A stretch of DNA of 64,000 nucleotides, from assembly GCA_041651095.1 (NCBI GenBank), contig JBAZJV010000002.1, positions 43,621-107,620 of the forward strand. Reading direction: 5' to 3'. The notes below the pieces were generated by a model. It was not told the DNA's origin, did no database searches, and was given only the letters and a program-made list of their open reading frames with translations. This DNA is from Patescibacteria group bacterium (GTDB lineage Bacteria; Patescibacteriota; Patescibacteriia; Patescibacteriales; UBA12465). The translations under genes and the position numbers were made by a program. Positions 5,368-64,000 of the stretch are shown here, in pieces. Positions within the stretch are counted from its first letter, which is position 1, and each line of letters begins with the position of its first letter.

Positions 5368-5373
5368 ATATTT

Positions 5374-25953: not shown

Positions 25954-25993
25954 AGCTTAATTATTTATATAATTATTATAACTATTGCAAAAA

Positions 25994-26030
25994 ATATTGT
26001 CAATATGTATGTTAATTATATTAACAATAT
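25994..26030. promoter_or_regulatory. Imperfect inverted repeat, candidate operator for the XRE-Panacea protein
   Basis: atattgtcaat (25994-26004) pairs with attaacaatat (26020-26030) with one mismatch, 40-75 nt upstream of the antitoxin start. Confidence 0.35.
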
Positions 26031-36749: not shown

Positions 36750-36759
36750 AAAAAAACGC

Positions 36760-37482
36760 TTAACCGCGGACCTCGCATAATTGGACATAGCCGCGGCCAA
36801 TAGCCGCGAATTCAGCCATCTCCCTGCTGGTATACGCTTGGCGGGCCTGATATTTCCGGTCCACCAGATCGGTATCGGACTTGAAATTCTGCAAATACCA
36901 CTTCTTGGCGCGCTTGATCATCTTTCCCATCTTGGCAAAATCTTCCTTCGCCAAGAGGCTGGGCACGACCGTGGTCCGAAATTCATAAGGCAGGCCGCTG
37001 GACATTATGATTTTAACACTTTTTTGCAAATTTTCCCAGTTAACCGGCACGCCGACGACAGCCTCGTATTTATCCGCCGGCGCCTTCAGGTCCATAGCGA
37101 CATAATCAATCAGACGGTCAGCGATAAGCTGCCGCAACATTCGCGGATTAGTGCCGTTAGTATCCAGCTTGACGAGATAGCCGATGTCCTTGATCTGCCT
37201 GATGAAATCCGGCAGATCCGGATGCAGGGTCGGCTCGCCGCCGGTAATGACTACTCCTTCCAAACGGCCGAAGCGTTCCGCTAAAAAAAGAAAAAGGTTC
37301 TGCGGGGAAAGCGGGGAAAAACCTTTTTCTTTTTTATTTTCGTCCTTTCCCTGACGGGGCAGGACAAGCAAGGGGTTATAGCAGAAGTGGCATCGGAAGT
37401 TGCAACCTTGGGTAAAGATGATGGCCGCTAGGTGGTCGGGGTAGTCTAGAAGAGTTAGCTTCTCTAAACCACCGATAATCAT
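36760..37482 (-). CDS. nrdG: Anaerobic ribonucleoside-triphosphate reductase activating protein (radical SAM)
   Basis: 240 aa with GCNFRCHFCYNP (CxxxCxxC) and GVVITGGEP, directly downstream of nrdD. Confidence 0.85.
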   Translation of the reverse strand: MIIGGLEKLTLLDYPDHLAAIIFTQGCNFRCHFCYNPLLVLPRQGKDENKKEKGFSPLSPQNLFLFLAERFGRLEGVVITGGEPTLHPDLPDFIRQIKDIGYLVKLDTNGTNPRMLRQLIADRLIDYVAMDLKAPADKYEAVVGVPVNWENLQKSVKIIMSSGLPYEFRTTVVPSLLAKEDFAKMGKMIKRAKKWYLQNFKSDTDLVDRKYQARQAYTSREMAEFAAIGRGYVQLCEVRG

Positions 37483-44098: not shown

Positions 44099-44182
44099 AA
44101 ACGTGATTTAGATTAGAAATAATTGCTGTTAATATTATACAAAATTTAAAAAAATTAAACAATTCCCGGCGACCGGGAAAAA

Positions 44183-44950
44183 TCAGGATAAGAGCCGCCA
44201 ATACCAGGCAATAATCGCTTCTCCCCAAATTAAAGTAATAATAGCCCCGGCGGCCAAAAATGGACCGAGGGCGATGCGGGATTGCCACTGTTTGCGCCGA
44301 CTAACAAGCAGGATTAGGGAAATACTAGCGCCTAAAGTATAAGAAGCGACCATAATCAGGAAAAGGCGACTTATGGCCGGAAAAGCCAGTCCTAAGAAAG
44401 CACCCAGCCAAATATCGCCCTCGCCCACGCCGCGGCGGCCGGTTAGAATATACTGGACCAGAAAAAAGGCGGCACCCAAAGCGGCACAGGTTAGCAGCAA
44501 TAACAGCGGCGCGCCCAGCAGCAGATTAAGCAAAAATACGGCGACGCCGGCCGGCGCCAGGAAATCCAGGGGAATAAGCTGCCATCTTAAATCATAAACG
44601 AAGACGACGAGCAAAGCGATAACCAGCAACCAGTCGCGCGATAAGGCTAAAGCTAATTGCGGATTAGCTAGTTCTAGGCGGCAGGTCAGCACAAACAGGA
44701 TGGCTGTCGCCAGCTCCACCAACGGATATTGCCAAGAAATATTCTGCCGGCAGGATCGGCAACGGCCGCGCAGAATAAAGAAGCTCAACACCGGAATATT
44801 ATCATACCAGGCGATCGCCCGGCGGCAATGCGGGCAATAGGAGCGGCCGCGCAGGCTTTCCCGCCGGTACAGCCGCCAGATCAGACAATTCAAAAAACTG
44901 CCAGTGATCAGGCCGAGGATAAAAACGATGCTGAAAAATAAAGTAAGCAT
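44183..44950 (-). CDS. pilD: Type IV prepilin peptidase (A24 family)
   Basis: 255 aa with CPHCRRAIAWYDNIPVLSFFILRGRCRSCRQNISWQYPLVE and a GEGDIWLGAF aspartyl motif region. Confidence 0.85.
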   Translation of the reverse strand: MLTLFFSIVFILGLITGSFLNCLIWRLYRRESLRGRSYCPHCRRAIAWYDNIPVLSFFILRGRCRSCRQNISWQYPLVELATAILFVLTCRLELANPQLALALSRDWLLVIALLVVFVYDLRWQLIPLDFLAPAGVAVFLLNLLLGAPLLLLLTCAALGAAFFLVQYILTGRRGVGEGDIWLGAFLGLAFPAISRLFLIMVASYTLGASISLILLVSRRKQWQSRIALGPFLAAGAIITLIWGEAIIAWYWRLLS

Positions 44951-44953
44951 AAA

Positions 44954-47287: not shown

Positions 47288-47305
47288 GCTTTAATTATAC
47301 CAGAT

Positions 47306-47332
47306 AAAAAAAGGGCTGGAAACAGCCCTTTT
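47306..47332 (-). terminator. Rho-independent terminator after secF
   Basis: The minus strand reads aaaagggctg-tttc-cagccc followed by ttttttt. Confidence 0.7.
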
Positions 47333-47357
47333 AGGAAAATTATTAGCTAATATTAAA

Positions 47358-48266
47358 CTATTTCTGCCGGTGAGTAAATTTATCCCAGACAACCAAGACC
47401 GGGCTCGCCACGAAGATGGAGCTGTAAGTGCCGACACAGATGCCAACGATAAGCGCCAGAGCAAAATCCTTAATCGTATCGCCGCCCAGGAATAACACGG
47501 CCAATAAGGCCAGGATGGAAGAAAGCGAGGTATTAATGGAACGGGTGATCGTCTGGTTCACACTCCGGTTGACCGTATTCTCGAAATCTTCCTGGCTCTT
47601 CGGCAGGCTTTCGCGGATACGGTCGAAGACGATGATCGTATCGCTTACGCTATAGCCCAGGACGGTCAGGACGGCCGCGATAAACGGCGTATTCACTTCC
47701 ACGCCGAAGAAATGGCCGAGCACCGCGAACACGCCGAGGATAAACAGAATGTCATGGATGAGGGCGATGATGGCCGCCACGCCGTATTTCCAAGAAGCGA
47801 CCGGCCGGGAAACCTTACGGAAAGCCAGAGAGATATAGATGATGATCATCACAAAGACGATCGCGGTCGCGTTGAAAGACTTGCTCTTGAGTTCCTGCCC
47901 GACGGACGGCCCGACCGCGTCGAACTGCAGTTCGGAGACGGCCGCCCCCGGCTTATCCTTGACTAAGGCTTGCAGGCTGTTCATCGCTGCCCGATGAGCC
48001 TCCTCCGTATTATCCTGGAAACGCATGATTACCGAATTGCTGGTCGGCTGGATGACCAGGTTGTGCAGGCCGACCGGCTGCAAAGCGTTTTGCAACTCGG
48101 TAATGCTGGGCTGATAGTTGGTAAACTGCACTTCCCAGAGACTGCCGCCGGTAAAATCGATGCCGAAATTCAACCCCCAGAAGCTAATGGCCAAAATGGA
48201 GGCGACGACGGCCAGGCTCGACAAGCTCAAGAATATTTTTCTCTTTTGAATGATGCGATAAATCAT
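47358..48266 (-). CDS. secF: Protein translocase subunit SecF
   Basis: 302 aa with GIDFTGG, a six-TM SecF layout and a VFDRIRE motif. Confidence 0.9.
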   Translation of the reverse strand: MIYRIIQKRKIFLSLSSLAVVASILAISFWGLNFGIDFTGGSLWEVQFTNYQPSITELQNALQPVGLHNLVIQPTSNSVIMRFQDNTEEAHRAAMNSLQALVKDKPGAAVSELQFDAVGPSVGQELKSKSFNATAIVFVMIIIYISLAFRKVSRPVASWKYGVAAIIALIHDILFILGVFAVLGHFFGVEVNTPFIAAVLTVLGYSVSDTIIVFDRIRESLPKSQEDFENTVNRSVNQTITRSINTSLSSILALLAVLFLGGDTIKDFALALIVGICVGTYSSIFVASPVLVVWDKFTHRQK

Positions 48267-50068: not shown

Positions 50069-51874
50069 TTACTTTATTAGAATCATTTTCTTTGTTTGTA
50101 CGAATTCGCCGGCATTTAATCGGTAAATGTAAGTACCGCTCGCCAGCTGAGCACCGTTGAAATCAACCGTATAAACGCCTGCTGCTTTTTGTTCATTAAC
50201 CAAAGTCATTACATCTCTGCCAAGAATGTCGTAAACTTTTAAAGTTACCGATCCGGACTGGGGGATGCTATAGCTAATAGAGGTAGTCGGATTAAACGGA
50301 TTGGGATAATTCTGTGCGAGGCTGAACGTTTTTGATAATTCGGTTTTACCTTCGACGCCAGTTACCTGTCCCGGAAGACTGACCGCTTCAACTTTATACT
50401 TTAACCTGCCATCCGGGACGGTAAATAAAATTTTTCCGTTGCTTACTGTGGCTGCCTTACTCCATAATTTCCCTGATGGGAGCATGGCCGATATCCTGAC
50501 CGCATAAGCCTTGGTGCTGATGTTTATCATATCACCGGTTTGCGTCGTGGTATAGCCTACCGGCACCGGTCTGGTACGCTGGGACATTAACTGCCCAATA
50601 CCTAAACCGCTAACGAGTGGATCGTCGGGGTGATTCAGCCACACACGTAAGAGGAATAAATCACATAAAGTTGAACCGTCAAATAGAATAGCGGTCTTAC
50701 CGAGATTATAGCCGACCCTGGTATATTGATATTCTTCCCCAATATAACCGAGACTCGTATATAATTTCTGTAATTCATCTACATCATCCATTAATACCGC
50801 CCCGTCTCCGTTAAAGTCACCCAAAACTCCATCAACTGACTTTATCGCTCGACTATAGTCTGCATATTGCGATAATGGCACTGACATAAATGGGCTATAA
50901 AGCACCGCTTCGTTGGAGAAATAGATATAGGAACTCGCACCGACTGGCAGAGAGTTGTGCCCGGACAGCCAACTGAAATTGAAATACTCTATGCCACCGC
51001 TTGTAGAATTGACTGTCCAATCAATTATCTGACTGGTATTAGTCACCGCCATGGTCACGTGACCGCGACTTTTTAAATCATCAGTCCAGGGAGCAGAAAG
51101 GCTAAAGTCGCCGCCGGTTAGATCTTGACCAATATTGGTGCTGGTCCTGAAACCAACAATGCAATTCGGTAAATAATTGGCTGGATTTAAATCACAATAC
51201 CCGGAAGAAAAGAAATACTCACCGGGCAGAACGTACAAGGTATCGGCAGTCAAGCCATTGCCGCCACGTGGATAAATCTGCAGCTTAAGCCGCAGATGAT
51301 CAGTATTGGCTAGCACCAAATTATTTCCAAACAATCCGTTATTCCAATCCGGTTCGTAATGCAGCACTTTACTCTCTTTAGCAGCAATGTCAGTTACGGC
51401 CAAATCTGTTAATGAAACATTAAATGTGCCCCAGCCATACAAATCTGCCCGTAGATTGATGACCACTGAGGTATGTTTGGCGATGACTAGCGGATTCGGA
51501 AAGTAAAAACCAATATTACGACTAGCGACATTAAGAGACCATGAATTGACTACACCGAGCCGCACATCATTATACAAAGCTTGAATGTTATGCATTTCCA
51601 GCTGAGCATCTTCGTATGGACTATAAATGCCAAAGACCATGCCAGCGACTAAGATGTCGTGACTAGACTGATTGTCTACCCTAACCGCATAGCAGCTAAT
51701 ATCGGATAAAACTTGCTTATCATTCGCCACCAAATTAGCACTGGGGGCTGATTGGTCTAAAGTTGCATAAACTGAATCCAAGGCAGTAACCGGATTCGTG
51801 GTCTGAGCTAGGGACAACGAACTGATACTGATAACGAACAACAAAAACCAGAAAAACATGGACATTTTTTTCAT
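50069..51874 (-). CDS. Secreted protein with a T9SS-type (Por_Secre_tail) C-terminal sorting domain and one dockerin/EF-hand-like loop
   Basis: 601 aa with a signal peptide (MKKMSMFFWFLLFVISISSLSLAQT). The C-terminal region reads FSLAQNYPNPFNPTTSISYSIPQSGSVTLKVYDILGRDVMTLVNEQKAAGVYTVDFNGAQLASGTYIYRLNAGEFVQTKKMILIK. It also has GDFNGDGAVLMDDVDEL. GC is clearly lower than in the flanks. Confidence 0.75.
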   Translation of the reverse strand: MKKMSMFFWFLLFVISISSLSLAQTTNPVTALDSVYATLDQSAPSANLVANDKQVLSDISCYAVRVDNQSSHDILVAGMVFGIYSPYEDAQLEMHNIQALYNDVRLGVVNSWSLNVASRNIGFYFPNPLVIAKHTSVVINLRADLYGWGTFNVSLTDLAVTDIAAKESKVLHYEPDWNNGLFGNNLVLANTDHLRLKLQIYPRGGNGLTADTLYVLPGEYFFSSGYCDLNPANYLPNCIVGFRTSTNIGQDLTGGDFSLSAPWTDDLKSRGHVTMAVTNTSQIIDWTVNSTSGGIEYFNFSWLSGHNSLPVGASSYIYFSNEAVLYSPFMSVPLSQYADYSRAIKSVDGVLGDFNGDGAVLMDDVDELQKLYTSLGYIGEEYQYTRVGYNLGKTAILFDGSTLCDLFLLRVWLNHPDDPLVSGLGIGQLMSQRTRPVPVGYTTTQTGDMINISTKAYAVRISAMLPSGKLWSKAATVSNGKILFTVPDGRLKYKVEAVSLPGQVTGVEGKTELSKTFSLAQNYPNPFNPTTSISYSIPQSGSVTLKVYDILGRDVMTLVNEQKAAGVYTVDFNGAQLASGTYIYRLNAGEFVQTKKMILIK

Positions 51875-52640: not shown

Positions 52641-52668
52641 ACCGACAGCAAACGATTTCCTGATCACA

Positions 52669-52699
52669 AAACTCCGCGGCTAAAAACCGCGGAGTTTTC
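52669..52699. terminator. Bidirectional rho-independent terminator
   Basis: aaaactccgcgg-ctaaaaa-ccgcggagtttt. Confidence 0.7.
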
Positions 52700-52724: not shown

Positions 52725-53717
52725 TCACTTGATAAAGAAAGAGTTGATCATCATCTGGAAGATCGTCGGATAGGCGATGCGGCCCTCCAGTGCGGGAATA
52801 TAGGAAATAACGAAAATATGCTGGCGGTTCTTGTCCGTCAAGTAAAAATTCAGGCCATTTTCACCCATAATGCCCTCCCAGCTGTAAGTGCTCCGGACCT
52901 TGTCGTAGGTGACGGTCACTTCCGGAAAAGACTCCTCATACCAGCTGAGCATGCCGGCCCGATTCTGGTTATCCTGCACGGAGATCTGAATCAAGGAATT
53001 ATCCGGCGCGCTGAAGATGGTCGTCGCCTCGTCATTCAAGGATTGAACAGGCCAGCCTTTCGGGTACAAAATCTCGTAATTGAAGGCTTGGTTGGCATAA
53101 GTTGTCAGCTGAGGATTGGTCGCTATTTTGCCGCTGCCGGACGGATCATAGCCGTTGATGATTTCCGCGAAATCAGAATAAGCATCGCCATCCGAGTCCG
53201 TGGAAGTGGCGCTAATTCCCAATAAGGCTTCCTCGCTGTCATTCAAGCCGTCCCGATCGGCATCCGGGAATAACAAATCAGTAGAACTCGTCGCCGGATT
53301 TTGGTCCGGCGCGATGACCGTCGTGGTCGCCAGGTCAATCGGCACCGTCGTGGTCGCCAAATCGGTCGTCGTGGCCGTTTCGACGATTGGCACCGTCGTG
53401 GTCGCCGGGCTGATGTCCGGCTCAACGATCACGGCCGGCTGCGGCGCCGCCGCCGGCGCGATGACAAAGCGATAACTCAAATAAACTAAAATGCCGATTA
53501 CCAGGACGCCGCTAATCATGATAATAATGCCGGTAGTCCGGTGCTTGGTGCCGGCCGGCTGAACCGCCGTGGCGACGGGCAAAGGAGCCGGCTCCATCCC
53601 CACCGCATAAGCCTCACCCAATTTGGCGGCCTTCGGCATATTGTGGACGACCATATCCTGATTCAGCTGATTGACGGCTTCCGGATTTTGTTCGATTTTC
53701 TTTTTCTTCTTAAACAT
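52725..53717 (-). CDS. Membrane-anchored extracellular protein with thrombospondin-type-3-like Ca-binding repeats
   Basis: 330 aa with one TM helix (TGIIIMISGVLVIGILVYL) and a Thr-rich linker (TTTDLATTTVPIDLATTTV). It has DADRDGLNDSEE and DSDGDAYSDFAE, plus a C-terminal globular domain. Confidence 0.5.
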   Translation of the reverse strand: MFKKKKKIEQNPEAVNQLNQDMVVHNMPKAAKLGEAYAVGMEPAPLPVATAVQPAGTKHRTTGIIIMISGVLVIGILVYLSYRFVIAPAAAPQPAVIVEPDISPATTTVPIVETATTTDLATTTVPIDLATTTVIAPDQNPATSSTDLLFPDADRDGLNDSEEALLGISATSTDSDGDAYSDFAEIINGYDPSGSGKIATNPQLTTYANQAFNYEILYPKGWPVQSLNDEATTIFSAPDNSLIQISVQDNQNRAGMLSWYEESFPEVTVTYDKVRSTYSWEGIMGENGLNFYLTDKNRQHIFVISYIPALEGRIAYPTIFQMMINSFFIK

Positions 53718-53742
53718 AAATTACCTCCCAACTCCGCGGATG

Positions 53743-53937
53743 TTACTGCCAAAAGATTAAAAAAGCGATCAAGACCATCAAGCCAAAAATCAATAGTCCC
53801 AAAAATAGCCATTTTTTAAAATGGCTATCGGCGGTCTGAGGCATCGTGTGCAGGCTGAGGGACAAACGCGGTAGAGCCTGCTTGGCGGCGAGCGATCGAG
53901 AACGCGCCAGCGTCTTATTATCGCTGTTCATCAACAT
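53743..53937 (-). CDS. Small single-TM protein
   Basis: 64 aa with a C-terminal hydrophobic helix (WLFLGLLIFGLMVLIAFLIFW). It lies in the same-strand cluster. Confidence 0.35.
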   Translation of the reverse strand: MLMNSDNKTLARSRSLAAKQALPRLSLSLHTMPQTADSHFKKWLFLGLLIFGLMVLIAFLIFWQ

Positions 53938-53948
53938 AAAAACGAGAA

Positions 53949-54818
53949 TTATTGGGCCATTTTGAGCGTATCGGCCGCTTTCATCAGTTTGCCGGTCCCG
54001 TTCGGATTGTAGCCATTCTTGACCTCCGCCCCGTCCAGATAGCCGTCATCATCGCTATCGGCGCTCAAAGGATTGCTGTGATAGATTTTTACCTCTTCGT
54101 AATCACTTAAGCCGTCGTTATCCGTATCGATGACATTGATATTCGTACCGACCGCTTGCTCCTCAGCGTCAGTCAATCCGTCGCTATCGGAATCGATTAG
54201 GGCAACGGGGCCGGGATTGACGGTGCCATCAGAGGGAGCGACATTTGCCGGACTGGTCGTGGCCGAGGTATTCACGCCCGGGATGCTGGGAATGGCTTCC
54301 GGCGTATTGACGGCCGTTTCGCCGCTGGTCGGCGTGACGAATGAACCGCTGCCGGTCGGCGTGACGGAAGTTGAGGGCTGAGACGGGGTGACTTCCGGAT
54401 TGGCGGCCGTCTGGGTCGGATTCGTGACCGTACCGGCAGCCGACGGATTGGCCGTCAATTCAGTCGAGAGATCCGGGCTGGCCTTAAAAAATTTACTATA
54501 CACCAAATAAGCGCCTAAAATAACGATGGCGGCGATAACGGCAATCAAGCTGATCTTGAACCATTTATTGCCGAAAGTTTTTTCGGCCGCCTCTTCCACC
54601 ATCCCGTCGCTGGCAGTCAAGCCGACCCGCCGGGTGTCAATGCCGATATTAGCCGAGCCAACGCCAACTGGAGCGCCGGGAGTGATCGGCGAACCGGGCG
54701 CAGCGGGAGCGGGGCTAGCGGGAGTGTTCGCTCCCTCCGGATTCCGGTCGGTTTCGGCGAAAATATCATCTACCGGCTGCTGGTTCTGACGATTGGGGTT
54801 ATTGAGATCGTTAAACAT
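53949..54818 (-). CDS. Membrane-anchored extracellular protein with three thrombospondin-type-3-like repeats
   Basis: 289 aa with a TM helix (WFKISLIAVIAAIVILGAYLVY) and a Pro/Thr/Ser linker. It has DSDSDGLTDAEE, DTDNDGLSDYEE and DSDDDGYLDGAE. Confidence 0.5.
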   Translation of the reverse strand: MFNDLNNPNRQNQQPVDDIFAETDRNPEGANTPASPAPAAPGSPITPGAPVGVGSANIGIDTRRVGLTASDGMVEEAAEKTFGNKWFKISLIAVIAAIVILGAYLVYSKFFKASPDLSTELTANPSAAGTVTNPTQTAANPEVTPSQPSTSVTPTGSGSFVTPTSGETAVNTPEAIPSIPGVNTSATTSPANVAPSDGTVNPGPVALIDSDSDGLTDAEEQAVGTNINVIDTDNDGLSDYEEVKIYHSNPLSADSDDDGYLDGAEVKNGYNPNGTGKLMKAADTLKMAQ

Positions 54819-54892
54819 ATTTTTTCCCTTTATTTGTAAGTATCTTAATTATAACTAATAACCGCCGGCTTGGCCAGGCTTCGCCGGCCGAT

Positions 54893-55210
54893 TTAACGGA
54901 TCGGCGCCTGCTGGCGCGGACTGATCGGCGGTACGGCGGCCGGATCAGTCACGATATCAGCATCGGAACTGATAATCTTATAAACGCTGATGTCGCCGCC
55001 GGCTTCCCGGGTGATCACTTGCGCTTTCAAATCAGCCGGTATGTTGAAGGCGGCTTTTTCCTGATCGGTCATAAACTCCACGGCCGGCAAGGAGCCGACC
55101 GGCGGCTGGCCGGCGCGGCGATGAAGCCGGCCCGACCAAATTAAGATCGCCAGGATAATGATCAGAATGAGACCGCCGATCAATATGGCGATTCGATGTT
55201 TATTGTTCAT
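54893..55210 (-). CDS. Small N-terminally anchored protein
   Basis: 105 aa with an N-terminal TM helix (IAILIGGLILIIILAILIW). Confidence 0.4.
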   Translation of the reverse strand: MNNKHRIAILIGGLILIIILAILIWSGRLHRRAGQPPVGSLPAVEFMTDQEKAAFNIPADLKAQVITREAGGDISVYKIISSDADIVTDPAAVPPISPRQQAPIR

Positions 55211-55222
55211 ATCTTTGCCTGA

Positions 55223-58200
55223 TTATTTCGTCTTCGTACTTGGCGAGCAGATTTTCCCCTCAACCCAGACGCCGTTGACGCAATTATCCGTATAATAACC
55301 ATTGTAGCCGCCGCTACCGCTCACCGTACAGGCGCGGGTCTTAGTGTCGGCGCCGCAATTGATCGTACCGCCGCAGCCGTTATTATTCTTGGTGCCGCAG
55401 ACATAGCCCAAAGACGGGCAGGTCGGCTGGGCCGAACAGGAACTGGCATCGACCCATTTGCCGCTAGCCGTACAGGATTGTTTTTTGGTACCGTAACAGG
55501 TGCCATAGGTACAGGCGACCGTGGTCGAAGTCGGGCCGCAATACAAGGTGCCGGCATTAGGCGCGCCGTCACAGCCGTTATTATAGCCACTGCCGCAAAC
55601 ATAGCCCTTGGAAGCGCAGGTGTCCGGCGTACAGACGCAGAAAGGGGTGGAAGTCGTATAGCCGGTGCAATCGCTATTACAGGGAGCATCACCGCTAAAA
55701 TGGCTGTTATGCCAAAGCGTCGCGCAAGATTTGGTCTTAATCTTATTGCCGCCGGACAGACAAGCTGTGCCATTACCAGTATTGACGCAGGTGCCGCTGC
55801 ACTGTGAGGCCCCGTTGATCTTCATTTCCGCCACCAGGTCCGAGGTATTGAAATTTTCTCCTTCGCAGCGGCCGATTTGTGACGTCTGACCATTCGGTCC
55901 GACATAAGCGTCGGATTTCGTGCAGTAGCCGGGACGCGGGTCGCTGGTGTCGCAGTTACCGAAATAGCCGCCGCTGCAACGTTTTGTGCCGATGATATGG
56001 CAAAGGCCATTATTCGGGAAAGTCGCTACTAATTCGCCGCCGCTATAGGCCGGATAATTATAGTAAATGCCATTGGAACAGGCGGTTTGATAATTGTTGT
56101 TATGGCTATAGCTGCATTGGCCGCCCGAGCAGGTCTCATTGGTGCACGGGTTATTGTCATTGCAATCATTTCCGGAAGAACACCTGGCGCCTAGGCAATG
56201 GCCGTCAACGCAGCTCTGGCTGCTGTTGCCGCAAAGCCCGCAGGAACCGCCGCAACCGTCATCGCCGCAGCTCCGACCGAAGCAGTTGGGCACGCAATTA
56301 TTTTCCGTAATCTGGGCCTGGCAACAGTCGCTGGAACAGTTGTCGCAGGTTTCCATAGCCGCGTTATTTATCTTGGCCTGGCAATAGCCGTCGCCGCAAT
56401 AGCCGCCGCCCTTGGTCGGGGATTTAAAGACGCATTGATCATTGCTGAGGATCGGAAAAGGGCGAGCGGAATCGGCCGTGGTCTGGCAGCCATATTGCTG
56501 ATCGATGCGGCTACTGGCGGCGTCGGCGGCGATCGATGCCAGGCCGTCGCAATCTTCATAGCCGTCATTATACAGGCCGCCGCGGCCCTCCGTATTCGGT
56601 TCCTGCCGGATGCCGTCGCCGCAATAATTATTGATTTGAAAAGAAAGCTTTTTCTCGGCGGCGGCGGCATAGTCATTGGTCACCCGAACGGTCACGTTCG
56701 CGCTCGTCGTATAAGCCGAGCTGCCTTTCAACCATTGATTAGTATCCGTCACGAGGCGGAAGCCGGTCGGCAGGCCGGTTGCCGTGTAGTGTAAAGATTG
56801 ATTCTCCTGCTGGAAAGGGCCAAGCTCGCAGGTATAAAGCTGATCGACCCGGCCGGCCGGAGCACAATTGAAATCCAATAACGGCACCGTTGCTTTGACC
56901 GTGATCGTGAAACTCTTGCCGGCAGTATTGCCGAGACTGTCGGTCACTTGCAAATTGCATTTAAAATCCTGATCACGGGTGAATTGCTGAGAGGCGGGGA
57001 TCAAGCCGTCATACTCTATCCGATATTTACCGGTGCCGATCAGGGTGACGGTCTTCTGCAGGCCGCTCAGCGAATTCAGCAAGTTAAAAGGGCTGCAAGA
57101 GACCGTATAAGAAGAAGCGCTGACGTTGCGGCCGGAAAAAGTAAAGCTGTATTTAAAATGATCAACCCGGTTGGCTACATATTCGGCGTTATCCGCTTCG
57201 ATAGAAATCATGGAAGAAAGAATCTTGATCGGAACGGTCGTCGCCAGGATGCCGCCCTGGCCGTCGCTGACATTGAGATTAATATTATAAGTTCCTTTGG
57301 CGCCGGCTCTGGCCGCATAGACTTTCTTCTGGCCGCTACTGCTGGTATTCTGCAATACCGGGGCGGCACTCCAGCCGCTCCAACTAGTCCCGCTGGTACG
57401 AAGAGTCCAGACCAAAGGATTATTTTCCTTATCTTTGACCTGGATATAGCCGTTGAATTCCTGGTTTACCTCGCCGGTGAGCGCCAGGCTGACCAATTCG
57501 GGCGGCGTATTGTTGGCATAGCCGCTGCTCCCGCCAATACCGCTGACGGAGCAAGTGGAAGTAGCCGGATCATTAGGGGAAAAATGGTAATTAAGGGCTG
57601 GGGCGCGACTCTCTAAGACCGCGCAGAGATTATATTTAGAGCCATTCGCGTCAGTAGCATAAGCTAAGGCATAGCTGTCGGCCGGCAAAACTAATTGGCT
57701 GGCACCGGCCGATTGATTATTGAAAAACCGTTTGGCGGCTATGCTCCAGCAAGTCTGCCGATCGTAGCCCGGACAAGAGCCTAGCCGGTTGATCGGATCC
57801 TGGAACGATTGGGGCATGGCCAGATTCGTCAGCAATTCCTGGGTCCAACTCGGCCAGACGGACAGGCTGTGGCCGGACAGATAGCTGCCGGAGTTTAGTT
57901 GCGGATAACGGTTATTGGTTTTCTGGAAATTAGCCAAGGCTTCTTTGATTTCTTCCAAACGACCGACCCGTTTCAAATCGCGCGTCACCTTTGATTTCAG
58001 GCTGTCGCAAAAATAATTGGCGGGGCAATCCGAGTCTACCAAGCAATATTTGGCGGTTTTTAACTGACAAGAATTGGCGTAACCGCTGCTGCTGCCGGCC
58101 TTGACGCAGAAAGAATCGACGGGGCAATCAAGGTCCGTATCGCAGCCCAGAGCGGAAATAGAACAACGGGGCGAGGTGCTATCCGTCAGATTGCTGTTGA

Positions 58201-58594
58201 ATTTCCAATGGCTGATGATCTGCCCCAGGATATCGACGGTATTGGGCACCGGATCCTGATTATAAGAAATCAGATAGATATTGGAGTAGATGCTGTTGGT
58301 ATCTTGATCGATGTTGGCCGCGTTGACATAGACCGTCCGGCCGTCCCTGATTGCCTCATAACCGTCGACCAGCAGGGATTGCGGCGAGCCCTGGAAGCCC
58401 TGACTTTCATACCACCGGGCGATGCTATAATGATTCGGATTGGGAATCACCCGAACGGCGATCGCATCCTGGTTGCCGACGCCAACCCCGGAATTAGTCG
58501 CAGCCAAAGAGGACCGCAAAGTCATCAGCAGCCAGGCTAAAACCAAGACGGCTAAAATTAATCGGAAGCTATTTTTCCCCATATATTTAATCAT
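55223..58594 (-). CDS. Large secreted cysteine-rich protein (Myxococcus-type Cys-rich repeat and CGxDGCGGxCG modules)
   Basis: 1123 aa with an N-terminal signal/anchor (FRLILAVLVLAWLLMTL). It has YCGDGIRQEPNTEGRGGLYNDGYEDCDG and CVPNCFGRSCGDDGCGGSCGLCG, plus two tandem C-terminal modules (TC.S.GYVCG...NGC.G...CG). Its start overlaps the upstream gene's stop by 8 nt. Confidence 0.6.
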   Translation of the reverse strand: MIKYMGKNSFRLILAVLVLAWLLMTLRSSLAATNSGVGVGNQDAIAVRVIPNPNHYSIARWYESQGFQGSPQSLLVDGYEAIRDGRTVYVNAANIDQDTNSIYSNIYLISYNQDPVPNTVDILGQIISHWKFNSNLTDSTSPRCSISALGCDTDLDCPVDSFCVKAGSSSGYANSCQLKTAKYCLVDSDCPANYFCDSLKSKVTRDLKRVGRLEEIKEALANFQKTNNRYPQLNSGSYLSGHSLSVWPSWTQELLTNLAMPQSFQDPINRLGSCPGYDRQTCWSIAAKRFFNNQSAGASQLVLPADSYALAYATDANGSKYNLCAVLESRAPALNYHFSPNDPATSTCSVSGIGGSSGYANNTPPELVSLALTGEVNQEFNGYIQVKDKENNPLVWTLRTSGTSWSGWSAAPVLQNTSSSGQKKVYAARAGAKGTYNINLNVSDGQGGILATTVPIKILSSMISIEADNAEYVANRVDHFKYSFTFSGRNVSASSYTVSCSPFNLLNSLSGLQKTVTLIGTGKYRIEYDGLIPASQQFTRDQDFKCNLQVTDSLGNTAGKSFTITVKATVPLLDFNCAPAGRVDQLYTCELGPFQQENQSLHYTATGLPTGFRLVTDTNQWLKGSSAYTTSANVTVRVTNDYAAAAEKKLSFQINNYCGDGIRQEPNTEGRGGLYNDGYEDCDGLASIAADAASSRIDQQYGCQTTADSARPFPILSNDQCVFKSPTKGGGYCGDGYCQAKINNAAMETCDNCSSDCCQAQITENNCVPNCFGRSCGDDGCGGSCGLCGNSSQSCVDGHCLGARCSSGNDCNDNNPCTNETCSGGQCSYSHNNNYQTACSNGIYYNYPAYSGGELVATFPNNGLCHIIGTKRCSGGYFGNCDTSDPRPGYCTKSDAYVGPNGQTSQIGRCEGENFNTSDLVAEMKINGASQCSGTCVNTGNGTACLSGGNKIKTKSCATLWHNSHFSGDAPCNSDCTGYTTSTPFCVCTPDTCASKGYVCGSGYNNGCDGAPNAGTLYCGPTSTTVACTYGTCYGTKKQSCTASGKWVDASSCSAQPTCPSLGYVCGTKNNNGCGGTINCGADTKTRACTVSGSGGYNGYYTDNCVNGVWVEGKICSPSTKTK

Positions 58595-61500
58595 GGATAT
58601 AGCATTGATTGGCCCAATTACCGTCTAAATAGCGGCATTTATTGGGATCGACTCGCTTAAGGCAGCCGGCCGTAGCGCAATAGGGATAGGCGCCGGCGTC
58701 TTTGATCGTGCCGGCGAACCATTGGCTGCTGGTACTGATTATGGCATCGTCATTGCAGAGCGCCGCGGCGTTTGGTCCGACATTCAATTTCACCAAGCAG
58801 GCCATCCCGTTGGGTAATTCCGCCAAACTGGCGGCCTGATACCACCAATTGTTAAATAAAAGCTGATATTGACGGCTATTCACGGTAATAGTCTCGGCCG
58901 TATCGCGCTGCAAGCTGAATTCGGCGGATTTTCCGCTTTCATTCTTATGGCTATCCAGAGCGGACAAGGCAAAATAGTGCGCGCCGACCACCAGCTGGTC
59001 CAAGGGATATAGCAGATTGACGGAAGAAACGGCGGCATCGAATGATTCGCCGTACTGTCCGGCACTGACGCCGTGATACAACCGATAAAAATTCGCGTCA
59101 TCGGTATTATTGAGCCAAGAAAACTTCAACTGATCGCCGATAATCGCCGCGTTCAAACCGGTCGGCGCCACGGGCGGCGTCCCGTCGGTCGGCGTTACCG
59201 TCTTTTCGCCGGTCAACTGCGTCTCCGTTCGGTTAGCCGAAATGACGGTCGCCTTGAAAACATAAGGGGTGTCGTTGGTCAATCCGCTGATGACGGCCTG
59301 GCAATTATTCAGCGCGCCGCTCGTAGTACAGGCTTGGGCAACCTTGAATTCTTGGCTGAGCATGCTCCCCTTGCCGGATTTTAAATAATAAATCTTATAG
59401 GCGGCGGCCTGGCTGGAATCGGAGGTCCATTCCACCTTGACGGCCCCGCCCGTCCGCTGATCGACGGCATTCGTGAACGCTCCGCCGGCCGGCAGACCGG
59501 CCCGGAAGAAATAAGATTCCTTCAGGACATTCCACAAACAGAGGCCGTCCGGCGCGCCATCGCCATTTTGATCCGGGCCGCAGGCGCCATTAAGGACCGG
59601 GCAAGGATTACGGTCGGAACTGCAAATCAGGTTATTGCTGGTACCGCGGACGACGGCCTGATCAATAATGGCCGGCAAGTCGTCCAAGGTGCCGTTCGTG
59701 CCGGCATCGCGGCAATAATAGAACTTATAATTATAGCTGCTGCAATTGCCGGAAGTCGGTAAACAATTAGCGCTATTATCGACCCAGGGCTGCCATCCGC
59801 CGTCCGCTCCGACGGGCGGCCAGGGATTATTGCACAAGAAGACATAAAGATCGCTATCGGCGTTGAACCCATTACCGCCGGAATAGGCGTTACAACAATT
59901 ATTGCTGCAAGCGGCGTCTTGGCAGGAGCAGTTACCGCTGTTGCAAGCGGTGGAGACAAAGCGCGTCATGTCGATAGTCGCCGTCAGCTTGGTCTCCCCG
60001 TCGACCACCCCGCCTCGCACGGTCACTAAAGCCTGGTCGGCCGGCAGGCCGGCGATCGGCGTGATGGCTGCGATATCCGGGTTATCCACCGCTAATCTCC
60101 AATCCCAGAAATAGCCGGTCACCGGTTGCAAGAATTGGCCGTCGGTACTATAAGCCTGAGCCATGAAAACCTTGTCCCGGTCGGCCGCGGTGTCGAAATT
60201 AGCCTGAGCCGGATTGCTGTCATTTTCATTCAGATCATTATCCGTCGTCTTGAACAGATAGGAAGCGGGCAGCACCGCAACTTTATCGATCGTACAGATG
60301 CCGGCGCTCGGACTCTGATCGGATAAAGTAGTGAATTTGATGATCTGGGAATTAGGGTAGCTATGATTATTGAATTTGAGATCTTTCGCCGGCGTATAGG
60401 AGCTGAGAGCCGCGTTGTTGCCGTATCCCTGGCCGTTAAAGCCGATTTCCGCCGCGCTTAAAACTCCGCTCTTGCTATTAAGATTCTCGTCGCCCTTAAC
60501 CACTAAGTAATAATTGACGGCCGGGGCCAATAATTTCTGCGGCGCGAACGCTAAGACCGTATGGTCGCCGGCGTTTTCGCCGGAGACCGTGCCGGGCACG
60601 GCGCAGTAGAGCTTGCTGGCGCTGGGCAGGACATCCGCCAAAACTTGTCCGGATAAGCGCCGAGCCAGATAGCGGAAAGTCGATCGGAATTGATCGGCTA
60701 AACGCGCCAGCCAACTTTTATTCTTCTGGGCCAAGATATCGCTGAGCGAATCGCCGCGGGCGACGAAAGTGCCGGACGGACAAACACCGCTGCCATAATT
60801 GCGCTCTTCCAGCAACAGGACGTTGCTGCTGAAACTGGAAATATCCATCAGTGAATCAAAGTCAATCTTAAGGAGCGCGTTGCGGCAGACCTTCTCGGCC
60901 AGATGAGCCGGCGAAGTGGTGCTGATGCGCGGCCGGGATTGGCAGCAGGTATCCGAACCGCAACCGATGGTCGCTAAAGTATCCGGGCCGCATTGTTCAT
61001 CGCTGGTGCAACCACAATAGAGGCCGCGGCTGGCGCCGGTGCAGGCTCCTTTATCGGCCAAACATTTCCAGACGATGTTCGGATCGAAGGGCGAAGTGGT
61101 CGTTGATCCGGGCTGGCAACAACAGGTGCCGCAATCCGGCGCCGCGACGCCTAATTGGCCATCCGGGCCAAAGCAGGCGAAATTGGGAAAATTACATTTC
61201 TCGCTGGCGCAGGTGGAAGTGGCTTTGCCGGCGCAGGATAAGCCGGGTCCGCTGGGTGGATTGACACAATAATTAGTGCAGGATTCAAGACTATTGTAAA
61301 TTCCGGTCGCTACCGGCGTCGAAGAGGCGCAGACCGGCGCGCCGGTCGGGCCGACCGCACACTCATAGTAAGCGCAGTAGCCCTGACTGTCGCCACCGGT
61401 AATCGGATTGCCTAAGCGGCACTTGGCGGCGGCATCGTTCTTGGCATCGAAACAGCAATTACTGTGCTTCTGGCATTCCGCCAGATCAGTAATGCCGGTA

Positions 61501-64000
61501 CAAGGATCGGCTTTCGGGCAATCGCCGTCGCAGGCCGCCAGGCTCGGGTAATTGCCGATCTTCAGTGGCGTCGAAGAAGCGCATTTGGTCGGATCGCCCG
61601 GCGGCGTCGCATAAGCGTCCTGACATTTATAATAGGCGCAATAGCCGAAATCCGGATTAGCCGGATCCGTCGTGATACCCTGTCCATTGCCGCCGCGGCA
61701 GACATCATCCGTCGTCGTGGCCGTTTTTCTGGCATCCAGGCAGCAGACGCCGCTATGGTCGCTGCAGTCCTGGCCGCTCAAACCGGCGCAATCCGTACAG
61801 ACGCCGTTCGGAAATTGCGGATTATTGATATCGCAGAATTGTCCGCTATGGCCGGCGCAGTTGCAGGCCGCATCCCGCTCGACCGCCGTATCGCCGGCCG
61901 CTTTGCAGCCGCCGCAACGGCCCAAAGTCACATTGCTGGTCTTACCGGTATCGACGCCGCAACTGCCCTCGCATTTCAAAGGGGCGCAGCAATCGCGGGC
62001 GTCCTGACCGATAGTACAGCAACAATCGCAAGTCGGCTGATCCGGCACGACGCATTTATCCTGGCCGGCCTGAAAACTCCTAGCGCAAGTCGCGCTGCCA
62101 GCGCAAAGCTCGGGCGAAACGCAATGTCCGGTTGAATCAGTGGCCTGTAATTTAACGCATTGGAGATCGGATGAACAAATGGCGCAAGTAGAGTTCAAAT
62201 CAATACATTTATTATTGCTTCCCTTGCTCCAGCCGTCCGGACAGGAAGAGCTTAGCGCGATTTCCCAATGTCGGTCGCTGTTGCAAGTGGCTGCCGTCTG
62301 GCGGGTCTGGCCGTCCATGACATAGGAGATCGTCTGGTCCACATCGCAACCGCCGCCGGCTTCATTCTGCACGCATTTATCGATCGTCGCTTCATAATGG
62401 CAAGCCGCCCCCAATAGCCCGCAGCCATTAAAACCGGCACAGCTGAAATCGCAATCCCCGACGACCTTCTTCCCGCCGCCGGCATAGGGCGAGCAGGACC
62501 CGGGCACGTTCGGGCAGCTGGTTCCGGTCTGGCAGGCGCCGAAATAGCTGGCCAGGCCGGCACAGCTGCCAGTTGTCGGGTCGCTGGAGGTGCTGAAAGT
62601 CGTATTGAAGCTCCACTCGAATACCGAATTAGGAATATCGATGAAACAATCAGCCAAGGCATTGGCGCAACGACCGGATTTATAAGTATTGGCCGGACAG
62701 CAAACTTGAGTGCCGCAATCGGCGTCAGCCGTACATTCGCCAATGGCAAAATTCAATTCATTGCCCCAAACGCTCTTATTGATCACCCGGACCGGACCAG
62801 TGATCGCTCCTGTCGGCACGGCGGTCTTGATCATATTCGCCCGCCCGTCCTTCTGGATGGTGCCGGTCGCATTCTTATCATAATTGAATTTGACCAGCCC
62901 TTCGCTGTTAAGCGTACCGAAATATTCGCCCCAGAGCGTTACCGGCGTTCCGGCCGGGCCGCGATCCGGTTCGATTTTGCATAAACTGGATCTCAAATCC
63001 AGATTCTTGTCGAACCTAAAAGCGTTCGGATTGAGTTGCTGGGTGTCTATCGTCGTCGTCCCGATCAGCATCCGGATGACCTGGTCGCCGTCGCTCAATC
63101 CGGGCGGCACCTTGACGACCACCTGATTATTCTTCCAGACTGAATTCAAGCACATATCCGGAAAATCATAGGCCGCTTCCGTGTTGCCGAAATAAACGCG
63201 GGCCGAGCCGCGGGCGCCGCCGAAAGCGTTGCCGCGGATAGTCACGTACTGGCCGGTATTGCCGGCGGTCGGATAGAACGAGGAGATATAGGGACCGGCG
63301 GCCGGTTCGGTCTCTTTGGTGAAACGCAGGTAATTGCTCTTTTCCGGCCGGCCGTTTAACGTATTCTGGACGAAGCTGCCGGATTCGCCGGGCTTGATAT
63401 TGGGAGTGGTGGAAGTGCCGGCTAGGCCGTCCGCCTCGTTGAATTGGGAATCCAGCGCCTTGACGTTGTTCTTATAATTACCGAAATAGGCTTGGCTGGA
63501 ATAAAGATTGACTCCCTGGTAAGCCACCTGCGACGCCATGACGCCGCTGTTAGGATCCAAATAGCACAAGCCGGGACGGCTGATGCTATTGGCTTGGAAA
63601 TCGGCGATGGCCGGTCCGTAGTCGTCATTAGTCGTATCCGACAGGCCGTCCTGATTCACGACTTTGATCGGTCCGGAGCTGACGCCGCCGGGGACAGCAA
63701 TTACGATCTGTTCGTCGTTCCAAGTATTTATGCAAGCCGGATTCAGGCTGGCCGGCTGGTTGCCGAGCGCCGGTATAGTATTGGCGGCGAAGACTACTTG
63801 GCTGCCCGTGGCGGAATAAGTCTCAAAATTCTTGCCGGTAATGGTTAGAAAATTATTAGCCGTACCATTAGGCGTGCTTAAATCGCAGCCGGTCGTGCAA
63901 TCGCTATCCTGAACACATGATTTATTGGAATCCTCCTGGCAAAAGCCGCCGACCGGACTGATTTCCGTAATGACCGGCGGACCATAGCACAAACAAGTCT
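58587..64000 (-). CDS. Giant secreted cysteine-rich surface protein with IPT/TIG-like and fibronectin-III-like domains (5' end beyond the window)
   Basis: More than 1800 aa, and the frame stays open to nt 64000. It has repeated IPT-like segments (GPYISSFYPTAGNTGQYVTIRGNAFGG; CKIEPDRGPAGTPVTLWGEYFG). It has tandem modules of the form CC.DA...GYCAYY.C...CASSTP. An FN3-like segment (PPVAPTGLNAAIIGDQLKFSWLNNTDDANFYRLYHG) is also present. Confidence 0.6.
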   Translation of the reverse strand, partial: TCLCYGPPVITEISPVGGFCQEDSNKSCVQDSDCTTGCDLSTPNGTANNFLTITGKNFETYSATGSQVVFAANTIPALGNQPASLNPACINTWNDEQIVIAVPGGVSSGPIKVVNQDGLSDTTNDDYGPAIADFQANSISRPGLCYLDPNSGVMASQVAYQGVNLYSSQAYFGNYKNNVKALDSQFNEADGLAGTSTTPNIKPGESGSFVQNTLNGRPEKSNYLRFTKETEPAAGPYISSFYPTAGNTGQYVTIRGNAFGGARGSARVYFGNTEAAYDFPDMCLNSVWKNNQVVVKVPPGLSDGDQVIRMLIGTTTIDTQQLNPNAFRFDKNLDLRSSLCKIEPDRGPAGTPVTLWGEYFGTLNSEGLVKFNYDKNATGTIQKDGRANMIKTAVPTGAITGPVRVINKSVWGNELNFAIGECTADADCGTQVCCPANTYKSGRCANALADCFIDIPNSVFEWSFNTTFSTSSDPTTGSCAGLASYFGACQTGTSCPNVPGSCSPYAGGGKKVVGDCDFSCAGFNGCGLLGAACHYEATIDKCVQNEAGGGCDVDQTISYVMDGQTRQTAATCNSDRHWEIALSSSCPDGWSKGSNNKCIDLNSTCAICSSDLQCVKLQATDSTGHCVSPELCAGSATCARSFQAGQDKCVVPDQPTCDCCCTIGQDARDCCAPLKCEGSCGVDTGKTSNVTLGRCGGCKAAGDTAVERDAACNCAGHSGQFCDINNPQFPNGVCTDCAGLSGQDCSDHSGVCCLDARKTATTTDDVCRGGNGQGITTDPANPDFGYCAYYKCQDAYATPPGDPTKCASSTPLKIGNYPSLAACDGDCPKADPCTGITDLAECQKHSNCCFDAKNDAAAKCRLGNPITGGDSQGYCAYYECAVGPTGAPVCASSTPVATGIYNSLESCTNYCVNPPSGPGLSCAGKATSTCASEKCNFPNFACFGPDGQLGVAAPDCGTCCCQPGSTTTSPFDPNIVWKCLADKGACTGASRGLYCGCTSDEQCGPDTLATIGCGSDTCCQSRPRISTTSPAHLAEKVCRNALLKIDFDSLMDISSFSSNVLLLEERNYGSGVCPSGTFVARGDSLSDILAQKNKSWLARLADQFRSTFRYLARRLSGQVLADVLPSASKLYCAVPGTVSGENAGDHTVLAFAPQKLLAPAVNYYLVVKGDENLNSKSGVLSAAEIGFNGQGYGNNAALSSYTPAKDLKFNNHSYPNSQIIKFTTLSDQSPSAGICTIDKVAVLPASYLFKTTDNDLNENDSNPAQANFDTAADRDKVFMAQAYSTDGQFLQPVTGYFWDWRLAVDNPDIAAITPIAGLPADQALVTVRGGVVDGETKLTATIDMTRFVSTACNSGNCSCQDAACSNNCCNAYSGGNGFNADSDLYVFLCNNPWPPVGADGGWQPWVDNSANCLPTSGNCSSYNYKFYYCRDAGTNGTLDDLPAIIDQAVVRGTSNNLICSSDRNPCPVLNGACGPDQNGDGAPDGLCLWNVLKESYFFRAGLPAGGAFTNAVDQRTGGAVKVEWTSDSSQAAAYKIYYLKSGKGSMLSQEFKVAQACTTSGALNNCQAVISGLTNDTPYVFKATVISANRTETQLTGEKTVTPTDGTPPVAPTGLNAAIIGDQLKFSWLNNTDDANFYRLYHGVSAGQYGESFDAAVSSVNLLYPLDQLVVGAHYFALSALDSHKNESGKSAEFSLQRDTAETITVNSRQYQLLFNNWWYQAASLAELPNGMACLVKLNVGPNAAALCNDDAIISTSSQWFAGTIKDAGAYPYCATAGCLKRVDPNKCRYLDGNWANQCYIHD

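Follow-up and report, generated by a model that had tools for sequence, protein, structure and literature searches.

What kind of system is encoded by an 11-kb run of co-directional genes, two of which specify giant cysteine-rich proteins, in a Patescibacteria genome, and do these genes belong together at all? The run in question occupies positions 52725-64000 of a 64,000-nt stretch of contig JBAZJV010000002.1 (assembly GCA_041651095.1), referred to here as the window, where the list of open reading frames (ORFs) shows six consecutive minus-strand genes filling the whole segment, labelled G2 to G7 in the direction of transcription. An initial annotation, made from the DNA letters alone, had proposed a dedicated cell-surface apparatus for adhesion or attachment and a candidate for host-cell contact. 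The genes belong to a vertically inherited seven-gene operon (G1 to G7) of Falkowbacteria-like Patescibacteria, and we consider it somewhat better than an even bet that its products build a multi-protein assembly on the cell exterior.

Conservation of a seven-gene operon

The genes are conserved as a unit. Their best homologs are annotated as "Patescibacteria group bacterium" and "Candidatus Falkowbacteria", and a pattern scan of GTDB representatives with the G3 alignment recovered G3 relatives in 236 species genomes. Seventy-nine loci were taken for a comparison of synteny, and in 45 of the 46 Falkowbacteria-like loci with enough flanking sequence the order is G1-G2-G3-(G4)-G5-(G6)-G7, followed by clpP on the opposite strand; the cluster thus holds together in relatives, a point on which the initial annotation had staked its proposal. 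Gaps that BLAST left at G4 or G6 usually hold an ORF of fitting size with a transmembrane (TM) segment in the expected place; six of those at G6 contained no ORF of 45 aa or longer. The genes on either side of the operon in relatives are relA/spoT and clpP, and the operon occurs once, at a fixed place in the chromosome amid housekeeping genes. Across the loci, identity is 86% for ClpP as opposed to 37-54% for the cluster proteins, a low figure that would be typical of exposed proteins.

The exception, locus L017 (10001-14017), has a G3-like protein of 1009 aa followed by a 325-aa membrane protein with thrombospondin type 3 (TSP3) repeats, in a different neighbourhood and without G1 or G2, which suggests that G3 and a TSP3 partner may constitute a minimal module. 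At 8 kb upstream of this pair there is an isolated gene for a 124-aa T4SS_pilin protein; it was considered as a link to a type IV secretion system (T4SS) and set aside, there being no T4SS genes at that locus. As a separate matter, many of the operon-bearing metagenome-assembled genomes (MAGs) in GTDB (L007, L008, L010 and others, from binchicken/SRP co-assemblies) are titled "uncultured Gammaproteobacteria bacterium", and single ones carry the titles "Bacillota", "Balneolaceae" and "Saccharimonadales"; these look like placeholder or wrong names, or binning contamination.

Within the window, G2 enters from beyond position 64000 and ends at 58587 (more than 1803 aa in the window, with the frame open at the window edge), and is followed by G3 (55223-58594, 1123 aa), G4 (54893-55210, 105 aa), G5 (53949-54818, 289 aa), G6 (53743-53937, 64 aa) and G7 (52725-53717, 330 aa). 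These coordinates and lengths agree with those first described. That all six ORFs are genes is clear from their homologs: there are hundreds at E=0 for the giants (for G2, about 120 among the matches listed; for G3, at least 552 homologs in all), and for the mini-proteins G4 and G6 almost every related locus has an ortholog or an equivalent in the same position. The gaps between genes measure 11-74 nt. At the G2/G3 junction there are two in-frame ATGs 12 nt apart (58594 and 58582), such that the 8-nt overlap originally reported holds if G3 starts at 58594 and disappears if it starts at 58582, the start in the public NCBI annotation, which lies 4 nt past the G2 stop codon. No obvious Shine-Dalgarno sequence is seen at either ATG (58580-58594), and with either start G2 and G3 are tightly coupled.

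The two ends of the operon can also be placed. A GC-rich hairpin at 52666-52698, read from the sequence as a bidirectional terminator-like structure with the arms CTCCGCGG and CCGCGGAG separated by 7 nt and flanked by an A-run and a T-run, lies between the convergent genes G7 and clpP and marks the 3′ end. At the other end, the count of six genes did not survive comparison with relatives: it is an artefact of the window edge, which cuts the operon, and the unit comprises seven genes, with G1 upstream of G2.

Architecture of the exported and membrane proteins

The most unusual feature of the cluster, an N-terminal VirB2-like pilin anchor, is invisible in the window. The window contains only the C-terminal 1803 of the 2037 aa of G2; the full-length protein (P0121) matches the window part at 100% identity and is encoded in this very MAG, on the same 172.8-kb NCBI contig. 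The missing 234 aa beyond 64000 hold a signal peptide, a VirB2-like T4SS_pilin hairpin and the first Cys-rich module. Over its first 120 residues P0121 presents the signal peptide and two hydrophobic helices with a K/R-rich loop between them (hydrophobic segments at residues 9-27, 55-73 and 98-116, with four K/R before the last helix), and this pattern recurs in nearly all listed G2 homologs. Pfam T4SS_pilin (PF18895) matches P0121 at 34.2 bits and its isolated N-terminus at 40.1 bits, against a cutoff of 26.6, in a region that lies outside the window. Some G2 homologs match PF04956 (TrbC/VirB2) in a precomputed Pfam list, and NCBIfam NF045849, the Mbov_0395 family of pilin-like conjugal transfer proteins, matches the G2 N-terminus at 33.5 bits, below its cutoff of 40.

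G1, seen in relatives upstream of G2 and behind a divergent relA/spoT gene, is a protein of ~890 aa with the same pilin domain and Big_5 domains; at locus L002 the T4SS_pilin scores are 37.8 bits for G1 and 36.4 bits for G2. The pilin modules of the L002 G1 and of the G2 studied here are 59% identical over 120 aa, and their ectodomains are unrelated. With a median identity of 57% across loci, the pilin module is the best conserved part of G1 and G2, which suggests a role beyond simple anchoring. Because the loop between the two helices is positively charged, it should face the cytoplasm and leave the ectodomains outside; the signal peptide and the VirB2/TrbC-like hairpin should thus place these ectodomains (~800 and ~1900 aa) in the extracellular space with little doubt.

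The part of G2 inside the window can be divided into three regions (window numbering). Residues 1-420 (62739-63998) consist of IPT/TIG-like Ig domains, with Pfam TIG matching two stretches at 54 bits (cutoff 20.9), and have a median identity of 54% to orthologs. Residues 421-1010 (60969-62738), delimited by the number of Cys per 100 aa, form a conserved Cys-rich core that holds most of the 112 Cys. Residues 1011-1803 (58590-60968) are a string of Big_5/Ig/FN3-like beta-sandwiches, in which Pfam Big_5 scores 26 bits (cutoff 23.6) and Pfam fn3 only 17.3 bits, below its cutoff of 25. The AlphaFold2 (AF2) model of the last 837 residues (967-1803) is an all-beta string with a pLDDT of 82.8, and its best PDB matches by Foldseek are the FN3/Ig arrays of PTP-delta, contactin, NCAM and fibronectin, so that the predicted structure would support FN3-like sandwiches despite the sub-threshold profile score. 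Of the IPT/TIG-like and FN3-like domains first claimed for G2, then, the former stand on profile evidence and the latter on the model.

The extreme cysteine content noted at the outset for the two giants is borne out by the counts: 68 of the 1123 residues of G3 (6.06%) and 112 of the 1803 window residues of G2 (6.21%) are Cys, compared with a mean of 0.56% over 15 other large ORFs of the window, and G4 to G7 contain none. Almost no variation is seen in the Cys columns of 72 aligned G2 sequences, homologs having 108-171 Cys, and we therefore infer structural disulfides; the accompanying suggestion of metal cross-linking found no support. The statement that such content is unusual in bacteria needs tempering, as clusters of Cys-rich extracellular proteins have already been reported in the candidate phyla radiation (CPR; PMC4736985).

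G3 is the second giant, and hydropathy gives it a cleavable-type signal peptide (hydrophobic residues 12-30) as its sole hydrophobic segment. Its AF2 model has an overall pLDDT of 71.6 and is confident over residues 41-650; it runs from an alpha/beta N-domain through small Cys modules and a long helix on a sheet to three Ig domains and a Cys-rich tail of low confidence. By AF2 and Foldseek, the head (residues 41-757, 56324-58474) comprises the N-domain, the Cys modules, a domain of helix and beta-sheet, and three Ig-like domains (353-655); its median identity is 45% in 81 loci, with a pairwise identity of 53%. Pfam He_PIG matches G3 at 24.8 bits, and the Foldseek matches in the PDB include cadherin, protocadherin, an RTX-adhesin extender and SGBP-B, with the EA1 S-layer protein of B. 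anthracis at rank 42. The tail (residues 758-1123, 55226-56323) is hypervariable, as judged by alignability and by tail lengths: only 10 of 81 loci have a tail alignable to that of the window, and the tails of 94 homologs range from 123 to 947 aa with a median of 11.9% Cys. An internal 75-nt repeat is present in the window tail (55349-55423 and 55547-55621). A diversity-generating retroelement acting on the tail was considered and is unsupported within the window, where no pair of template and variable repeats was found. CGDG...CDG-like strings are visible in residues 658-757, but no match to the Myxococcus cysteine-rich repeat (TIGR02232-type) emerged when G2 and G3 were scanned against NCBIfam at E<=0.1.

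The G3 N-domain (residues 41-136, 58187-58474) is a possible SLAP-like wall-binding module. Its mean column identity is 80%, and in a profile search against the PDB it matched 8ALU (E 0.008) and 7QFG (E 0.011), both of them structures of the teichoic-acid-binding SLAP domain of Lactobacillus acidophilus SlpA (PMC11181022). Aligned by hhalign with a small SLAP alignment, the N-domain gave a probability of 76.7% (E 2e-5) over 47 columns. The internal dimer that two tandem SLAP motifs form in SlpA was not found in G3, which has one aligned unit straddling the end of SlpA motif 1 and the start of motif 2. It is plausible that this is a wall- or partner-binding module rather than a member of the SLAP family. 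With residues 41-350 as query, HMMER recovered 1382 relatives among 1.84 billion cluster representatives, and in nearly all of the 150 matches listed, proteins of ~280-2100 aa, the module is N-terminal. The neighbouring residues 199-345 were also considered as a pilin- or pseudopilin-like domain, an idea that is unsupported: no PDB profile matched, and hhalign against PulG gave a probability of 17%.

The remaining four proteins are small, and hydropathy predicts one TM-like segment in each, which fits the original description of G4 and G6 as single-TM mini-proteins. G4 is bitopic with an N-terminal TM segment (residues 7-25) and has 54 orthologs plus positional equivalents. G5 is likewise bitopic; an N-terminal VDDIFAETD (nt 54747-54773), almost invariant in 61 orthologs, precedes the TM segment (residues 89-107), after which come a linker rich in Ser/Thr/Pro and the three TSP3 repeats (nt 54024-54194; DxDxDGxxDxxE three times), and Pfam TSP3_bac (PF18884) matches at 60.2 bits against a cutoff of 25. 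G6 has a C-terminal TM segment (residues 44-62) preceded by the cytoplasmic motif LHTMP (nt 53839-53853), and G7 is again bitopic: the cytoplasmic VHNMP (nt 53634-53648) comes before its TM segment (residues 62-80), and a Thr-rich linker then leads to two TSP3-type motifs (nt 53163-53264) and to a globular domain at the C-terminus (nt 52728-53120), for which there are weak PsbP-like hints (NCBIfam E 0.022; PDB 2xb3 E 0.45). Two anchored proteins with TSP3-like repeats had been claimed, and the motifs are there in both. The two copies in G7 were found by regular expression, however, and the window G7 itself has no Pfam TSP3 match; its L002 ortholog matches at 32.6 bits. For the TSP3 proteins, whose Ca2+ binding is putative, there are weak profile matches to EF-hand and lanmodulin loops (E 0.07; LanM E 6e-5, below cutoff).

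G6 and G7 share the cytoplasmic motif [LIV]H[TN]MP ahead of the TM segment. In the six-frame translation of the window it occurs in these two proteins only, and in 83 loci only in G6 orthologs (33) and G7 orthologs (37). That G6 might be a truncated paralog of the G7 N-terminus was considered and rejected: hhalign aligns only the 7-residue motif, and therefore the two share a short motif and not a domain. The motif resembles the PilM-binding INLLP peptide of PilN; Pfam PilN gave no match and a literature search came back empty, and we treat the resemblance as a lead only. The short conserved cytoplasmic peptides of G5, G6 and G7 suggest that they may have a common cytoplasmic partner.

Taken together, these features predict that all products are membrane-bound or secreted, and the surface location first proposed is supported by the signal peptides, the single TM segments and the pilin-like hairpin. 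A motif search of G2 to G7 found no LPXTG sorting signal, lipobox or prepilin motif, and the class III prepilin signal G|F-T-L-x-E is likewise absent from these proteins; G2 and G3 have no C-terminal hydrophobic segment, and the sole LPxxG-like string is internal, at G2 residue 1647. Sortase, lipoprotein and prepilin anchoring were accordingly rejected, and of the signals for which a prediction had been recommended, signal peptides are seen in G2 and G3 and a sortase motif in none. The structures predicted for the giants, as also recommended, show strings of Ig/FN3-like beta-sandwiches in the last 837 residues of G2 and in G3, the latter confident over residues 41-650, and in AF2 and Foldseek the ectodomains appear as Ig/FN3/cadherin-like strings without catalytic folds. 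The Pfam and NCBIfam scans found no enzyme or transporter domain in the six proteins and Foldseek no enzyme fold, in agreement with the initial annotation. A PDB sequence search with G2, G3 and G7 returned nothing significant.

Relatives among intracellular or phage-tail proteins would have told against a surface role. None of the six proteins matches a PHROG family, and the matches in BFVD are generic Ig domains, with a TM-score of at most 0.23 for all but one of the 50 listed, the one being a short 234-aa target at 0.34. A phage origin or phage-tail identity of the cluster was therefore rejected, and the products are predicted to be exported or membrane-bound.

Competing readings of the assembly

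How might seven such proteins work together? In the assembly that we favour, G1 and G2 enter the membrane by means of the signal peptide and the VirB2/TrbC-like two-helix hairpin, with their ectodomains outside, these being made of disulfide-type Cys-rich modules and Ig/TIG/FN3 beta-sandwiches, while G3 is exported with an ordinary signal peptide. The SLAP-like N-domain of G3 may attach it without covalent bonds to the wall or to G1/G2, and the protein would then project three Ig domains and the hypervariable Cys-rich tail outward. G4 to G7 are single-pass membrane proteins, G5 and G7 carrying TSP3-type acidic repeats outside the cell; these Ca-binding-type repeats, on long Ser/Thr/Pro linkers, could tie the assembly to membrane and wall, and [LIV]H[TN]MP in G6 and G7 and VDDIFAETD in G5 could couple it to a cytoplasmic partner. 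The four small bitopic proteins would organise the assembly at the membrane. The whole would be the outermost contact surface of the cell, most likely serving adhesion to a partner cell or a substrate, with the G3 tail setting the specificity. The exported or membrane location of the products, their types of fold and their conservation as a unit are shown; a seven-protein complex, its attachment to the wall and its role in adhesion or host contact are inferred, hence the conditional.

Several points weigh against this picture. The physical association of the seven proteins is derived from co-conservation only. The wall-binding step depends on a borderline similarity: Pfam hmmscan of G3 gave no SLAP (PF03217) match at E<=0.1, and the phosphate-binding YxY....KxxN of SlpA (PMC11181022) is not conserved, the SlpA segment HNAYVYASSKKRAN aligning with SNIYLISYNQDPVP of G3 such that the second Tyr and the Lys are not retained. 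The G3 tail is poorly modelled by AF2, and any binding by it is conjecture. The host-dependent lifestyle of this organism is a presumption by analogy with other Patescibacteria. Finally, strict single-copy conservation beside housekeeping genes fits a structural coat equally well.

That last point leads to a serious rival, an S-layer-like structural coat of monoderm cells in which G3 together with G1/G2 would supply lattice and stalk subunits, serving integrity and protection with no specific adhesion; it fits the data about as well, and we regard it as possible rather than probable. The conserved anchor-type N-domain of G3 resembles the wall-binding motif of Lactobacillus SlpA, and G3 pairs this conserved anchor with a hypervariable exposed part, the pattern known from Lactobacillus SlpA and C. 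difficile SlpA. EA1 appears among its Foldseek matches, and the operon is universal, single and fixed in its chromosomal position. Cryo-EM of groundwater CPR cells by Luef and colleagues in 2015 reportedly revealed a distinct surface layer. A locus of seven genes with two membrane-hairpin giants is, however, unlike known S-layer loci, the SLAP match that this reading shares with the adhesive one is borderline and lacks the phosphate-binding residues, and the Ig-string matches are generic. An S-layer protein should, moreover, rank among the most abundant of the cell.

The pilin modules permit a different view, namely that G1 and G2 are modular VirB2-type pilins that are extracted by a chromosomal T4SS and built into a pilus, or cap or prime it, so as to display giant adhesin modules, which would make the operon the missing adhesin set of the Patescibacterial T4SS. 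Both proteins carry bona fide T4SS_pilin domains, and the pilin module is their best conserved part. T4SSs with VirB2-like pilins are widespread in Patescibacteria, including class ABY1, yet no PrgB-type adhesins have been found there (PMC12102498), and pilin arrays are essential in Southlakia, a cultivated relative (PMC10633639). A VirD4/TraD-like ATPase is encoded in the window at 34845-36800; this gene, however, is an orphan 16 kb away, and no virB4, virB6 or small major-pilin gene adjoins the operon in the window or in 78 related loci. A C-terminal extension of 1900 aa on every subunit cannot be reconciled with the way VirB2 filaments are known to pack, and these proteins would at best be tip or base subunits of a pilus. 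No genomic linkage to a T4SS supports assembly into a pilus here, and polymerisation by G1/G2 is hypothetical; we think this reading improbable. Taken furthest, this view would make G1 and G2 the first known case of modular VirB2 pilins, placed by the T4SS at its pilus tip or base; the operon would supply the host-recognition device otherwise missing from these epibionts, whose T4SS is essential but has no adhesins, and the G3 tail would determine host range, all of which we likewise regard as a long shot.

It could also be argued that there is no functional unit at all and that the genes encode independently acting surface and membrane proteins that are merely neighbours. Locus L017, with its G3-like and TSP3 proteins and neither G1 nor G2, is compatible with this. 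Mere adjacency would nevertheless have to account for a gene order kept in 45 of 46 loci despite divergence to 37-54% identity, for spacing that is tight or overlapping, and for a cluster-specific motif shared by G6 and G7, and we consider it very improbable. The envelope-surface assembly with an adhesive role is the reading that we prefer.

Precedents, surroundings and significance

Proteins of a similar description have been seen before. Ca. Peribacter riflensis, also a small-genome CPR member, has clusters of Cys-rich extracellular proteins of more than 1000 aa with signal peptides and 6-7% Cys, for which Anantharaman et al. (2016) proposed attachment or rigidity (PMC4736985). G2 and G3 fit this descriptive class of large Cys-rich CPR extracellular proteins, being longer than 1000 aa, provided with an export signal, several per cent Cys and clustered. 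The likeness is one of description, however, between different lineages (Peregrinibacteria and a Falkowbacteria-like one), and the Peribacter description mentions neither a VirB2-like pilin anchor nor TSP3 partners in the membrane nor a fixed order of seven genes.

The VirB2-like pilins of Patescibacteria (PF18895; PMC12102498, PMC10633639), surveyed in 2025 by Quinonero-Coronel et al. (PMC12102498), have the same Pfam domain as G1 and G2, with a signal peptide and a two-helix hairpin. The known ones are small proteins (~100-130 aa) in variable arrays, often beside virB4, whereas in G1 and G2 the domain is the N-terminal 6% of ~890- and 2037-aa proteins that occur as a fixed pair and not beside T4SS genes. 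Lactobacillus SlpA (Sagmeister et al. 2024, PMC11181022) resembles G3 in that a conserved module, for wall anchoring in SlpA and putatively so in G3, is joined to an exposed region that varies, and the two profiles are locally similar around ...Y(V/I)NAANID...; where SlpA has two copies of the module at its C-terminus, G3 has one at its N-terminus, and G3 is far larger, Cys-rich and equipped with Ig domains. Giant Ig-repeat adhesins (the RTX extender PDB 6xi1; FdeC PDB 4e9l) likewise have long strings of beta-sandwiches that project a distal variable or ligand-binding region. Unlike these, the cluster giants have no RTX repeats, no signals for type I secretion or autotransport and an extreme Cys content, and anchoring is by an N-terminal membrane hairpin rather than by the outer membrane or a sortase. 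Modular type IV pilins such as Streptococcus sanguinis PilB offer a further parallel to G1/G2, in that a pilin-type membrane module carries a large functional ectodomain; they belong to a different pilin superfamily with a prepilin signal, a motif that G2 to G7 lack. In the searchable literature we found no description of the seven-gene operon, of a T4SS-pilin domain fused to giant ectodomains, of the SLAP-like module or of the shared [LIV]H[TN]MP motif.

The operon lies in a housekeeping neighbourhood: the window encodes ClpP, SecD/SecF, a Wzy_C-TPR protein, a prepilin peptidase, FtsA (42839-44098), FtsZ, NrdD/NrdR, PBP2 and others. Its GC content (51-58%) is that of the rest of the genome, unlike that of two low-GC patches elsewhere that hold defence genes. 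The larger of these (4000-10600, 30-33% GC against ~52% elsewhere) contains a gene for an ATPase with AAA_15/AAA_21 and OLD-like TOPRIM domains (6401-8005) overlapping a UvrD-like helicase gene (5374-6456), which together resemble a defence pair of Gabija type. The pair is bracketed by an 83-nt direct repeat whose copies (4026-4108 and 8135-8217) are 76% identical, and a fused N6_Mtase and Methylase_S protein is encoded at 8256-10580. The second patch (24000-26000, 34% GC) includes a gene for an HTH_3 and SocA_Panacea antitoxin-type protein (25189-25953, minus strand).

No virB4 or virB6 was found in the window, where the orphan VirD4-like gene (34845-36800, minus strand) is the only one of T4SS type. 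It encodes 651 aa with the coupling-protein domains TrwB_AAD_bind and TraG-D_C of VirD4/TraD type, matches NF045973 (CD1115 family) at E 1.9e-10, below cutoff, and ends in a CxxC-x17-CxxC treble-clef zinc finger; its neighbours are genes for an RNase_T exonuclease and a radical-SAM (NrdG-like) protein, and further T4SS genes are absent from the vicinity. Among other features, a 601-aa protein encoded at 50069-51874 (minus strand) carries a Por_Secre_tail, the C-terminal sorting domain of type IX secretion (39.5 bits), in a presumably monoderm Patescibacterium; the syntenic gene at L002 encodes a Peptidase_S8 with the same tail, and at L003 the gene is absent. Two paralogous proteins, each with only a C-terminal PEP-utilizers mobile domain, are encoded on the minus strand at 18873-20414 and 21087-22178, and their genes share a 143-nt repeat (73% identical, 18904-19046 and 21124-21266). 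AT skew is unusually strong (~0.25) over 44000-48000, which includes the Wzy_C-TPR gene (44954-47287) and its neighbours.

A large part of bacterial diversity belongs to the Patescibacteria. To our knowledge, all cultivated members live attached to other microbes, the molecules of their contact surfaces are largely unknown outside Saccharibacteria, and we know of no CPR surface-layer protein identified so far. The operon described here, a fixed set of seven exported or membrane proteins in at least ~45 relatives, is a concrete, lineage-wide and testable candidate for such a contact surface. It combines a pilin-type anchor in a new context, a possible wall-binding module and a distal region, hypervariable and Cys-rich, such as one would expect where partners are recognised or antigens varied. 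A tie to the T4SS, if true, would account for the way in which a pilin-bearing T4SS of monoderm cells reaches its target, and an S-layer function would identify a CPR surface-layer protein. If the genes do encode an adhesin set, the host range of Falkowbacteria-like organisms would become predictable from sequence.

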